A stretch of DNA of 63,605 bases, counting the filler, from Collodictyon triciliatum (Eukaryota): assembly GCA_043381765.1 (NCBI GenBank). It is 6 parts of 6 records of this genome, joined end to end, with 100 filler letters (N's around TTAATTAATTAA, not from the genome) between each part and the next. Parts side by side here need not be neighbours in the genome. Positions count along the whole stretch, not along the records: positions 37,023 to 53,086 come from JBHJMP010001587.1; 5 more parts are not named here. The stretch is one strand, 5' to 3'. This document shows, piece after piece, positions 44,425 through 47,370 of this stretch. The notes under the pieces were generated by a model. That model ran no database searches. It saw only the letters and a list, made by a program, of their open reading frames with translations, and was not told the DNA's origin. A program made the translations under genes and the position numbers. Positions within the stretch are counted from its first letter, which is position 1, and each line of letters opens with the position of its first letter.

Positions 44425-47370
44425 ATGAGCACCTACCAGTATCTTTCCACCCACGGCTACAACGCCCCTGTTGCTGGAACCACCCGTGCCTACAACCACC
44501 TCGGAGCCACCCGTGACTTCACCCTGGGCAACAATGTTGCCTCTGAGCCCGTGAACGCCGGCCCCGCCAACACCGAGGCCCAGACCCGCACCCGTTACAT
44601 CCAAGAGCCTGTTACCGAAATCGTTGTCCACCAAATCGAAGAAGACTACACCGACTTCGAGACCCGCGCCATCACCGAGGATGTCACCGAACTCGTTGAT
44701 GTCACCGAGTACGTCCCCGTCCAGCGTACCGTCACCCAGTACGTCCAGGAGCCCGTAGTCTCGCGCATCACCACCCAAGTGGAGGAGCCCGTCACCACCA
44801 TGGTCAGAAAGACCCAGGAGCGCCAGGTCACCTCGTACCAGACCGAGTATGAGACCGTCAAGGTCCCCCAGAAGGTCACCAAGGTCGTGAACGAGGAGCG
44901 CAAGGAGCTTGTCAAGCGCCCAGTCCAGGAGCTCGTCACCGAGACGGTCAAGCAGACCATCCAAGAGCCCGTCCAGACAACCGTTAAGCAGACTATTAAG
45001 CAGGAGGTCCAAACCACCACCAAGCAGATTGTCAAGGAGCCCGTCCAGACGACCACCAAGCAGACTGTCAAGCAGGAGGTTCAAACCACCACCAAGCAGA
45101 TTGTCAAGGAGCCCGTCCAGACGACCACCAAGCAGATCGTGAAGCAGGAGGTCCAAACCACCACCAAGCAAATCGTCAAGGAGCCCGTCCAGACCACCAC
45201 CAAGCAGACTGTCAAGCAGGAGGTCCAGACTACTACCAAGCAGATTGTCAAGGAGCCCGTCCAGACGACCACCAAGCAGACTATCCAGGAGCCCGTCCAG
45301 AGCTTTGTTACCCGTGACATCCAGGTCCCCTACACCGAGCTAGTGAAGCGCGAAGTGCAAGTGCCGCACACTGAGATGGTGAAGCGCGAAGTGCAAGTCC
45401 CCCACGTGGAGTATGTCCAACGCACCTACGAAGTGCCGGAAGTCCGCTACTACGAGGTGGAGTTTGAGCGCACTCAACGCGTTGTGGAGACACCCGAGAC
45501 TCAGGTTGCGACCCGCTCGTACGCCCTCCCTGGAGCGGCAGTCACCTCTGGTGTTTACCAGACCGCGCCTGGAACCGTCCTTACCTCTGGCGTGTACCAG
45601 GCTGCCCCTGGAACCGTCCTCACCTCTGGTGTGTACCAAGCCGCCCCTGGTGCCGTCCCTATCTCTGGTGTGTACCAAGCCGCCCCTGGTAATGTGCTGA
45701 CGTCCGGAGTTGCACGCTCATTCGTGCTCCCTGGTGCGGCCCCAGTGACGTCTGGCGTCGCAGCCCCTGTCATGTCATCCACTGGCGCCGTTGCGGCCCC
45801 CATCCCCGGATCAGCCCGCATTGTCGGCTCGTACACCAGGCCCGCCCCAGCCACCCGTGACTTCCAAGTGTTCCAGCCTGAGCGCTTTGTGCAGACGGAG
45901 CAAGAGATTGTCTACACCACCAAGACTGTGGAGGAGCCTGTCCACACATTCCGCCGCGAGGTTGTGGAGGAGGCCATCCAGACCTTCCGCACCGAGTACG
46001 TCGACGAGCCCATCCAGGTTTTCCGCACTGAGCAAGTCCAGGAGCCTATTACGACCTATGTTACCCGCGAGATTGACGTGCCTGCCATCGCCTACGTCGA
46101 CCGCGAGATTGACGTGCCTGCCATCGCCTACGTCGACACCGAGATCGATGTCCCCACGATTGTCTACGTCGACCGCGAGATTGATGTCCCCGCCATTGCC
46201 TACGTTGACACCGAAATTGACGTGCCTGCCATCGCCTACGTCGACCGCGAGATTGACGTGCCTGCCATCGCCTACGTGGACACCGAGATTGACGTGCCCA
46301 CCATCGTTTACGTGGACCGCGAGATTGACGTGCCTGCCATCGCCTACGTGGACCGCGAGATTGACGTGCCGGCCACCACGATTGTGACGCGCGAGATCGA
46401 CGTGCCTGTGCAGAAGTACGTGACGGTCTTTGTGGACGAGGAGATCACGGTGCAGGTGCCGCGGGTGGTGGAGGAGGACATCTTTGTGGACGTGACGCAG
46501 GCGAAGCAGGTGCCGGTGGTGCAGGTTGTGCAGGAGGAGTACTACGAGCCGGTGACCACGCTGGTGCAGCGCCCCGTGGAGCAGGAGGTTGTCAACTACG
46601 TGCAGCGGCCGGTGGAGCAGATTGTCACGGAGAACGTGGCTGTGCTCAAGAAGGTGCCGACGACACGGGCGGTGACGCGGGAGGTGCAGGTGCCGGTCAC
46701 ACGCACGGCAACACGCGAGGTGGAGGTGCCGGTGACCACGTACATCACCAAGGCCATCCAGGAGGAGGTGCGACCGACCACGGTGCGCGTGCTGCAGGGC
46801 GAGGAGCTCCCCGAGCAGGCCCGCCTGATCGAGACGGGTGCCGTCACACGCTCCGTCGCCCTCCCCGGCGCATACTACACCGGCAACTACGTGGCCAAGG
46901 AGGAGCCCGCCACATACTCGGGCCCCGTCGAGTCGACCCGCTCCTTCGTCTTCCCAGGCGCCGCCCCCGTCGTCTCCGCCACCGCTGCCACTGCCACTGC
47001 CACCCGCTCCTTTGTCCTGCCCGCCGCCACGACCTCCAACGTCGTTGCCACCTCGACCTCCACCGTCGTGGCCCCCGCCCCGACTCCAGTCTACTACGGC
47101 GGCGCCACCCGCTCCTTTGTGCTGCCCGGCTCCGCCACCGCTGCCACGACCTCCAACGTCGTTGCCACCTCGACCTCCACTGTCGTGACCCCCGCCCCGA
47201 CCCCGGTCTACTACGGCGGCGCCACCCGCTCCTTTGTGCTGCCCGGCTCTGCCTCTGCCGGCCCCATCTACTACGGCGGCGCCACCCCCTACCAGGTCGC
47301 CCCCTACCAGGTCGTCGCTGCCCCCGCCCCCGCCCCCGCCGCCTCTGCCGCCCCCGCCACCACCAACTAA
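44425..47370 (+). CDS. Articulin/alveolin/epiplasmin-like V/E/T/P-rich cortical cytoskeletal protein (981 aa, intronless CDS)
   Basis: VPV/EVP-type 12-aa repeats and strong C/G-ending codon bias. True ATG is probably 44425 because 44199-44420 is a GTAGGT..CGTAG 5'UTR intron containing (CACAA)n. Confidence 0.88.
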   Translation: MSTYQYLSTHGYNAPVAGTTRAYNHLGATRDFTLGNNVASEPVNAGPANTEAQTRTRYIQEPVTEIVVHQIEEDYTDFETRAITEDVTELVDVTEYVPVQRTVTQYVQEPVVSRITTQVEEPVTTMVRKTQERQVTSYQTEYETVKVPQKVTKVVNEERKELVKRPVQELVTETVKQTIQEPVQTTVKQTIKQEVQTTTKQIVKEPVQTTTKQTVKQEVQTTTKQIVKEPVQTTTKQIVKQEVQTTTKQIVKEPVQTTTKQTVKQEVQTTTKQIVKEPVQTTTKQTIQEPVQSFVTRDIQVPYTELVKREVQVPHTEMVKREVQVPHVEYVQRTYEVPEVRYYEVEFERTQRVVETPETQVATRSYALPGAAVTSGVYQTAPGTVLTSGVYQAAPGTVLTSGVYQAAPGAVPISGVYQAAPGNVLTSGVARSFVLPGAAPVTSGVAAPVMSSTGAVAAPIPGSARIVGSYTRPAPATRDFQVFQPERFVQTEQEIVYTTKTVEEPVHTFRREVVEEAIQTFRTEYVDEPIQVFRTEQVQEPITTYVTREIDVPAIAYVDREIDVPAIAYVDTEIDVPTIVYVDREIDVPAIAYVDTEIDVPAIAYVDREIDVPAIAYVDTEIDVPTIVYVDREIDVPAIAYVDREIDVPATTIVTREIDVPVQKYVTVFVDEEITVQVPRVVEEDIFVDVTQAKQVPVVQVVQEEYYEPVTTLVQRPVEQEVVNYVQRPVEQIVTENVAVLKKVPTTRAVTREVQVPVTRTATREVEVPVTTYITKAIQEEVRPTTVRVLQGEELPEQARLIETGAVTRSVALPGAYYTGNYVAKEEPATYSGPVESTRSFVFPGAAPVVSATAATATATRSFVLPAATTSNVVATSTSTVVAPAPTPVYYGGATRSFVLPGSATAATTSNVVATSTSTVVTPAPTPVYYGGATRSFVLPGSASAGPIYYGGATPYQVAPYQVVAAPAPAPAASAAPATTN

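Follow-up and report, generated by a model that had tools for sequence, protein, structure and literature searches.

A new alveolin-family protein of Collodictyon triciliatum with two equal arms of 12-residue repeats

A 63,605-nt stretch of DNA from Collodictyon triciliatum (assembly GCA_043381765.1), hereafter the window and the basis of all coordinates, carries within its part JBHJMP010001587.1 (37,023-53,086) a gene for a 981-residue protein that we call P0001. P0001 is a new member of the alveolin family with an unusually regular, self-complementary layout: two arms of 24 units, built from two types of 12-residue unit, A and B. As the best explanation overall, we consider it probable that P0001 is an expressed, cytosolic alveolin-family protein that arose by tandem duplication of one module with reciprocal amplification of its A and B units, the runs of which would pair with one another. 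The coding sequence (44425-47370, + strand) was delimited from the open reading frame (ORF), Pfam IMCp and RNA cover. The long ORF spans 44296-47370; the start codon is put at 44425 by inference and the stop codon is TAA at 47368-47370. The protein contains 0 cysteine and 0 tryptophan residues.

The family assignment comes from the IMCp profile (PF12314, curated cut-off 21.1 bits). It scores 22.6 bits on whole P0001 and 38.7 bits on residues 160-680 (E 1.3e-9, profile positions 4-92 of 94), where the match is placed on the C-terminal array (residues 593-679). The profile is matched by the B-type array and not by the A-type array, giving one canonical and one non-canonical repeat domain per chain. 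Val/Pro-rich 12-residue repeats, an alveolin trait, are present as 48 units in the two arms. As described in PMC4303705, alveolin repeats have a 12-residue period and resemble those of articulins and plateins. PMC13175489 quotes an EKIVEVP-type heptad, EVVR and VPV as alveolin motifs; P0001 has 0 exact EKIVEVP, 0 EVVR, 14 of the looser form [KRT]E[IV][DEQ]VP and 5 VPV.

A HMMER search against 1.84 billion representatives gave 197 matches at E<=1e-3. Many of the top matches are unrelated low-complexity repeat proteins (e.g. P0003, P0004, P0008, P0009 and P0041), and the TRS-x-LPG motif found in P0001 occurs in 0 of the 150 matches listed (of 197). A 33-row alignment, A1, was assembled from matches pre-selected by a V/P motif, the query and L001, a relative found on a metagenome contig; IMCp is present in 31 of its 33 rows. 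Relatives with a name come from dinoflagellates and from two coccidians, Cystoisospora suis and Neospora caninum, whose protein is called "alveolin domain containing intermediate filament IMC9". The top match in a language-model Atlas is an IMCp cluster (score 0.83), taken as a lead only. No PDB sequence matched P0001 (0 hits). A homologue search with the whole protein gave 1 weak match among the best 8000 candidates, and one with residues 296-547 gave none among the best 8000. On its repeats and profile matches, P0001 is very probably an alveolin-type cortical skeleton protein. Its putative localisation would be cytosolic, probably as part of an intermediate-filament-like membrane skeleton.

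One matched group is of separate note. A 351-residue protein with IVEVPxIVEVDR-type 12-mers (P0025 / P0152) shares a 90% cluster with a 758-residue hypothetical protein of Candidatus Synechococcus calcipolaris; this cluster represents an alveolin-like repeat in a cyanobacterium.

Each arm of P0001 consists of 24 units of 12 residues in constant register (residues 56-343 and 500-787). The N arm begins with ten degenerate, mostly A-like units, assigned by profile scoring and register (44590-44949, residues 56-175). Then comes the N core array, ten A-type units (KQIVKEPVQTTT / KQTVKQEVQTTT; 44950-45309), followed by an inner part of four B-type units (e.g. KREVQVPHVEYV; 45310-45453, residues ~297-344), with B-profile scores of 17.5-32.5. 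The C arm begins with an inner part of four A-type units (e.g. EYVDEPIQVFRT; 45922-46065, residues ~499-546), with A-profile scores of 15-24. It continues with the C core array of ten B-type units (REIDVPAIAYVD / TEIDVPTIVYVD; 46066-46425), which is the canonical alveolin (IMCp) domain according to Pfam, and ends with ten degenerate, mostly B-like units, assigned in the same way as those of the N arm (46426-46785, residues 668-787). All these features lie on the + strand. Tandem Repeats Finder (TRF) reports the cores at period 36, with 9.8 copies in the first (44949-45301, also read at period 72) and 9.6 in the second (46065-46408). A first-pass annotation of the same DNA had proposed ten 12-residue units in each core, four further 12-residue units on each inner side and an outer arm of ~120 residues; TRF and unit-by-unit cutting agree with it on the cores (36 bp per unit), and the extended register agrees with it on the inner and outer sides, the latter being the ten degenerate units (120 residues).

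The order of variants within the cores is also as first described. The N core reads KQTIQEPVQTTV, KQTIKQEVQTTT, then KQIVKEPVQTTT alternating with KQTVKQEV, KQIVKQEV and KQTVKQEV units, and finally KQTIQEPVQSFV. Its pattern is thus a b X Y X Z X Y X f, with KQIVKEPV at N3, N5, N7 and N9, KQTVKQEV at N4 and N8, and KQIVKQEV at N6. The C core reads REIDVPAIAYVD twice, TEIDVPTIVYVD, R-type, TEIDVPAIAYVD, R-type, TEIDVPTIVYVD, R-type and two degenerate units. This corresponds to X X Y X Z X Y X v w, with REIDVPAIA at C2, C4, C6 and C8, TEIDVPTIV at C3 and C7, and TEIDVPAIA at C5. Proline occupies unit position 7 in 14 of the 16 cases in the N arm and position 6 in 18 of the 22 cases in the C arm.

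The first-pass annotation had regarded the two arrays as unrelated. This label is incorrect: both are 12-residue Val/Pro repeats, and A and B units share the skeleton h-x-[EV]-P-h in the same phase. Moreover, homology between the arms runs through the A-to-B junction in direct order. When the junction of arm 1 (residues 272-348) is compared with that of arm 2 (523-600), they align without gaps over 76 residues with a score of 158. Shuffled sequences have a mean score of 34 (0 of 300 reach 158) and the reversed sequence scores 40. When every 12-mer of P0001 was scored against the A and B core types, the inner four units of each arm proved to be of the type of the opposite arm.

The flanking motifs, located by motif scan on the + strand, recur in direct order too. 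ATRDF is found at residues 29 and 477; its first TRDF (44509-44520, residues 29-32) lies 27 residues ahead of arm 1 and the second (45853-45864, residues 477-480) lies 23 residues ahead of arm 2. TRS[YV]ALPG is found at 363 and 808, 20 and 21 residues past the arms. Its first copy, TRSYALPG (45511-45534, residues 363-370), closes module 1. After it comes a linker in which TRF finds a 39-bp repeat (13 residues, TSGVYQAAPGTVL) of 3.7 copies (45544-45689, + strand). The protein ends in an Ala/Thr/Pro/Tyr-rich tail (46846-47370, + strand), in which the motif TRS[FV]x[LF]P[GA] occurs five times and a 117-bp repeat is present.

These recurrences would be explained by one module duplicated in tandem and in direct order: ATRDF, ~25 residues, 24 units of 12 residues, ~20 residues, TRSxALPG and a Gly/Ala/Pro/Tyr-rich stretch. 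In both copies, A units (xxIVKEPVQTTT, non-canonical) would come first and give way to B units (REIDVPAIAYVD, the canonical alveolin type). Amplification would have affected the A units in copy 1 and the B units in copy 2, yielding A20B4-linker-A4B20. Reciprocal amplification after a direct duplication would thus produce a pseudo-mirror at the protein level without an inverted repeat in the DNA. The two arrays are indeed not an inverted DNA repeat, as had been stated from the start: their similarity is at background, with a best ungapped identity of 43% in direct orientation and 40% in reverse complement.

The first-pass annotation had further read the co-variation of units in mirror order as a sign of a giant antiparallel hairpin. 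The order itself does not carry this argument. Both cores contain the palindrome X Y X Z X Y X, so that unit order does not reveal orientation: the mirror pairing N(i)-C(11-i) and the parallel pairing N(i)-C(i-1) each fit 7 of 7 core units, with one class mismatch at an array end. Unit-by-unit DNA distance matrices were compared by Mantel correlation, using the 144 alternation-preserving permutations of the 7-unit cores. For the 7 core units, the mirror mapping gives r 0.62, a value reached by 21% of permutations, and the parallel mapping r 0.53, reached by 67%. Over 10 units the mirror mapping (shift 0) gives r 0.24, and over 9 units the parallel mapping (shift -1) gives r 0.60, the highest among 14 mappings tried. 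The distance matrices do not separate the mirror from the parallel mapping. One small asymmetry favouring the mirror is the position of the single divergent X unit, N7 in one core and C4 in the other (chance 1 in 4).

The equal unit counts are of another kind. They agree at 24/24, 10/10 and 4/4, despite an A-to-B junction offset by 16 units between the arms. This is suggestive of matched arms, in which every A would come to lie opposite a B upon fold-back. As in other alveolins, the 12-residue units would fold as short beta-strands, and heterotypic pairing of the A with the B runs would build a beta-ribbon or sheet; such pairing would hold both runs at equal length. It could take place by fold-back within one chain or between neighbouring chains, and be antiparallel or parallel, all of which are compatible with the sequence. 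In its favour we count the equal unit numbers, the opposite charges of the cores (N about +8, C about -20) and published models of alveolin ribbons. In the AlphaFold models of PMC12465100, alveolin domains are described as disordered by themselves and as needing a specific partner to form twisted beta-ribbons. For TgIMC1-IMC4, an AlphaFold 3 model presented in PMC13175489 shows a parallel arrangement with electrostatic contacts. On the whole, we see an even chance that A and B runs pair at all, in whatever arrangement. A self-complementary alveolin in the strict sense, in which A20B4-linker-A4B20 would pair every A with a B by fold-back or in a head-to-tail dimer and in which unit gains would be matched, appears unlikely.

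The most specific form of pairing is the hairpin itself. One chain would fold at the Gly/Ala/Pro linker into an antiparallel two-stranded ribbon of ~288 residues per arm, ~95 nm if extended, with unit gains on one arm compensated on the other. On fold-back, A20 would face B20 and B4 would face A4, the counts being equal, and the divergent X units would stand at mirrored places. The per-unit charge correlation is more negative for the mirror (r -0.43) than for the direct order (-0.09), a difference driven by repeated, non-independent units. The closest published likeness is PfIMC1e of Plasmodium falciparum, which has in one chain a canonical alveolin domain and a second, Val/Pro-rich non-canonical repeat (NCR) region outside the alveolin consensus. 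As PMC12465100 presents it, AlphaFold models pair both regions as an intramolecular beta-ribbon, and both are jointly required for localisation. Compared by description, the ~13 and 9 repeats of PfIMC1e are degenerate, whereas P0001 has 24 and 24 units with near-perfect cores; an A-then-B order in both halves and equal unit counts are not reported in the passages of PMC12465100 concerned with this protein. Against the hairpin, the mirror order is uninformative since both patterns are palindromes, and the preference for the mirror in the Mantel comparison is not significant. Paired, the two arms would carry a net charge of about -34, and neither of two AlphaFold2 monomer runs described below contains a ribbon at their low confidence, which is weak evidence either way. 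A single intramolecular antiparallel hairpin is plausible, with a published precedent, and on balance unlikely.

Several observations weigh against matched, pairing arms or the wider reading of P0001 as an alveolin of this layout. The N core has proline in alternate units only and the C core in every unit. The first-pass description of a basic and an acidic partner stands for the cores, and fails for the whole arms, which are unbalanced (N -2 vs C -32); the inner segments are not charge-complementary either (0 to -1 vs -2). The outer N units lean A-like and the outer C units lean B-like in the 12-mer scoring, labels that rest on weak scores (8-32). The equal counts come from one gene (n = 1) and could be a coincidence, and no RNA contig spans an array to corroborate its copy number. 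The palindromic pattern is not kept in L001, the core of which reads a b c g d c f. Protein homology searches and HMMER gave no full-length homologue of P0001. As to an alveolate host, the compared exon (23555-23812) of a DDX6/Dhh1-like helicase gene in the window has its best match, 79%, in Diphylleia rotans, which is not an alveolate, followed by 75% in the gregarine Lankesteria and ~73% in many animals. Structure prediction yielded no usable model. An AlphaFold2 single-sequence run on residues 50-792 gave a predicted local distance difference test score (pLDDT) of 33.9 and a predicted template modelling score (pTM) of 0.23, with low-confidence helices in the N arm, 12-periodic strands in the C core and no ribbon. 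A second run with the 33-row alignment on residues 160-680 gave pLDDT 41.3, pTM 0.19 and no secondary structure. Such low-confidence monomer folds are weak evidence either way and typical for alveolin monomers; bioRxiv 10.1101/2023.08.10.552545 likewise reports a TgIMC6 model of extremely low confidence.

Unequal crossing-over commonly produces two-unit periodicity. The arrays could be two independently amplified two-unit (72-bp) tandem repeats, alike by chance in length and in variant order, with arms that bind other alveolins or act as spacers. Once alternation is required, two cores would share the Y-Z-Y order by chance in 1 case out of 3 (1 in 105 with a free order of 4X+2Y+1Z). L001 differs in unit count (7+3) and in order, which is not palindromic, so the pattern would be recent and labile. 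Alveolin domains are also described as binding other proteins along their length, as IMC6 does with IMC3 and ILP1 (bioRxiv 10.1101/2023.08.10.552545). Such independence of the arms has to be set against the three equalities that hold despite the 16-unit offset, against the opposite core charges, and against the published models in which alveolin ribbons require a specific partner domain (PMC12465100). We regard the absence of pairing as somewhat unlikely.

A third explanation concerns the assembly: the exact number and order of near-identical units could have been produced by a gapped draft, in which case the unit-for-unit match would not belong to the real gene. The window has many N runs, neither core array is spanned by an RNA contig, and some units are identical at the DNA level (N3, N5 and N9; C1=C2; C6=C8). 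However, the longest exact repeats within the arrays are 55 and 62 nt, which is below common read lengths, so the arrays are resolvable in principle. The region 43801-47800 is free of N, the reading frame and register are kept in both arrays, and the array flanks match contigs of four RNA runs. An artefact of this kind is very improbable.

L001, the sole relative from a metagenome scan, is one contig of 1168 nt which covers the N arm only and terminates ahead of the linker. Its protein is 82% identical to P0001 across the N half, and its outer ten units are ~90% conserved, with no indels. The N arm of L001 has 20 units, the A core being short by exactly 3 units (36 residues) and the inner B run by exactly 1 (12 residues). 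This deficit may be a repeat collapse during contig assembly. A paralogue of the P0001 gene was searched for by tblastn across the window, with no match outside the gene itself.

The partner specificity of alveolin ribbons is so far inferred from AlphaFold multimer models. P0001 stands out by two long, near-perfect arrays, one of each repeat flavour and equal in unit number, and its gene is widely expressed. A P0001 that is self-complementary in the strict sense given above would provide, for the first time from a single gene and at the level of single units, evidence on how alveolin beta-ribbons are set in register and select their partners, and a natural, near-idealised pair of model peptides for solving the alveolin fold. 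Should the arrays pair, the fold and its register could be defined on short synthetic A and B peptides as a tractable system. A comparison of alleles would reveal whether the two arrays gain and lose units together. Without pairing, P0001 is simply another repeat-rich cortical protein.

The repeat consensus of articulins is VPVPV--V----. Articulins and plateins are also said, after Marrs and Bouck (1992), to carry hydrophobic Tyr/Gly/Ala-rich terminal repeats, which the P0001 tail resembles. P0001 has 0 VPVP and only 5 VPV in 981 residues, and an articulin identity was rejected; P0001 differs from articulins by having one proline per unit and by fitting the IMCp profile. The likeness lies in the 12-residue Val/Pro-rich repeats, shared by the articulins of Euglena and the plateins of Euplotes; both are proteins of the membrane skeleton and are placed by Al-Khattaf et al. 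in one structural superfamily with alveolins (PMC4303705). The same source describes N-terminal endoplasmic reticulum signal peptides in plateins. Residues 1-30 of P0001, read by eye, contain no hydrophobic run, and a platein identity was likewise set aside.

Coccidian alveolins (Toxoplasma gondii IMC1-IMC4; IMC9 of Cystoisospora and Neospora) share with P0001 the IMCp domain and 12-residue Val/Pro repeats. Among the relatives, P0018 and P0055 match P0001 residues 464-825 and 452-758, with an identity of only ~32% over repeats. In contrast to P0001, coccidian alveolins have a single alveolin domain, and their pairing, as modelled in PMC13175489, is between two different proteins and parallel.

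The P0001 gene is expressed in a freshwater protist. Its sequence occurs in 19 RNA runs, which belong to 15 studies, with 56-79% of sampled 31-mers per run; the runs are metatranscriptomes of freshwater, lakes or aquaculture, together with one coded organism. Contigs (k=31) of four RNA runs (X1, X3, X4 and X15) cover the gene piecemeal over 44463-47343. X1 contigs are colinear over the inner units and the linker (45253-46091). RNA contigs stop at 45026/45253 and around 46108-46343, leaving neither core array spanned. Because they break inside both core arrays, the unit counts are those of the genome assembly alone.

The 5' untranslated region (UTR) of the gene is probably spliced, as judged from the contig pattern rather than from a listed joint. 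A probable exon 1 lies at 44068-44198 (+ strand, from X15 contig cover), its left end being approximate. A 222-nt GT..AG intron follows (44199-44420, + strand), within which TRF finds a (CACAA)14 microsatellite at 44313-44382. X15 depth is present in the bin 44068-44201 and zero in the bin 44202-44335, and an X15 contig joins the window at 44419-44421 while carrying 94 extra letters upstream. The sequences at the two borders are splice-like, CAG/GTAGGT at 44198/44199 and TAG/ACAAATG at 44420/44421.

Transcripts vary around this gene. A 39-nt linker unit is missing in an X4 contig (joint 45623->45663; window 45624-45662). In the tail, indels relative to the window are +6 nt at 46984 (X1, X15), -3 nt at 47129 (X15) and +6 nt at 47319 (X1). 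Upstream of 44463, contigs of X1, X3 and X4 depart from the window for 168-249 nt of other coding-like sequence, and one X1 contig departs past 47358 for 255 nt. Probes of 30 nt from these loose ends, upstream of 44463 and downstream of 47358, are absent from the window. The contigs concerned may come from alleles or from paralogues whose N- and C-termini differ.

Downstream and convergent with the alveolin gene is an ankyrin-repeat gene (Ank_2, E 2.7e-29) at 47428-49374 on the - strand (ORF 47635-49374). X15 contigs define in it a 72-nt intron (47619-47690, GT..AG when read on the - strand) and place its poly(A) site at 47428, only 58 nt away from the stop codon of the P0001 gene. A spliced, polyadenylated neighbour implies eukaryotic nuclear DNA. 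Together with the RNA cover, the neighbour transcripts argue against reading the P0001 region as prokaryotic or as a non-coding minisatellite, and this reading was rejected. Long ORFs on the opposite strand (536 and 260 residues) were discarded as by-products of GC-rich repeats.

Other genes lie further away. The DDX6/Dhh1-like DEAD-box helicase gene (22845-24512, - strand) has at least five exons and short introns. Its best exon identity of 79% and the lack of a close P0001 relative in protein databases suggest a poorly sampled lineage. Exon-like ORFs at 19467-20620 (- strand) carry a motif that would suggest a mitochondrial carrier protein. Rfam and tRNA scans of the window gave no match. 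N runs, which are scaffold gaps, lie at ~2.66-3.34, 15.8-16.3, 29.5-30.4, 38.6-39.3, 51.5-52.2 and 55.9-56.6 kb and account for apparent AT-rich dips in the composition profile. A 1594-residue ORF at 5458-10242 (- strand) contains many Sel1 repeats (E 4.4e-97). An intron-free ORF of 1974 residues at 30967-36891 (+ strand) encodes an N-terminal WD40 propeller followed by ~30 cysteine-rich Ephrin_rec_like repeats (E 4e-176). The GC content at third codon positions is 0.31 in this ORF vs 0.78 in the alveolin gene, a very wide range of codon usage within one window.

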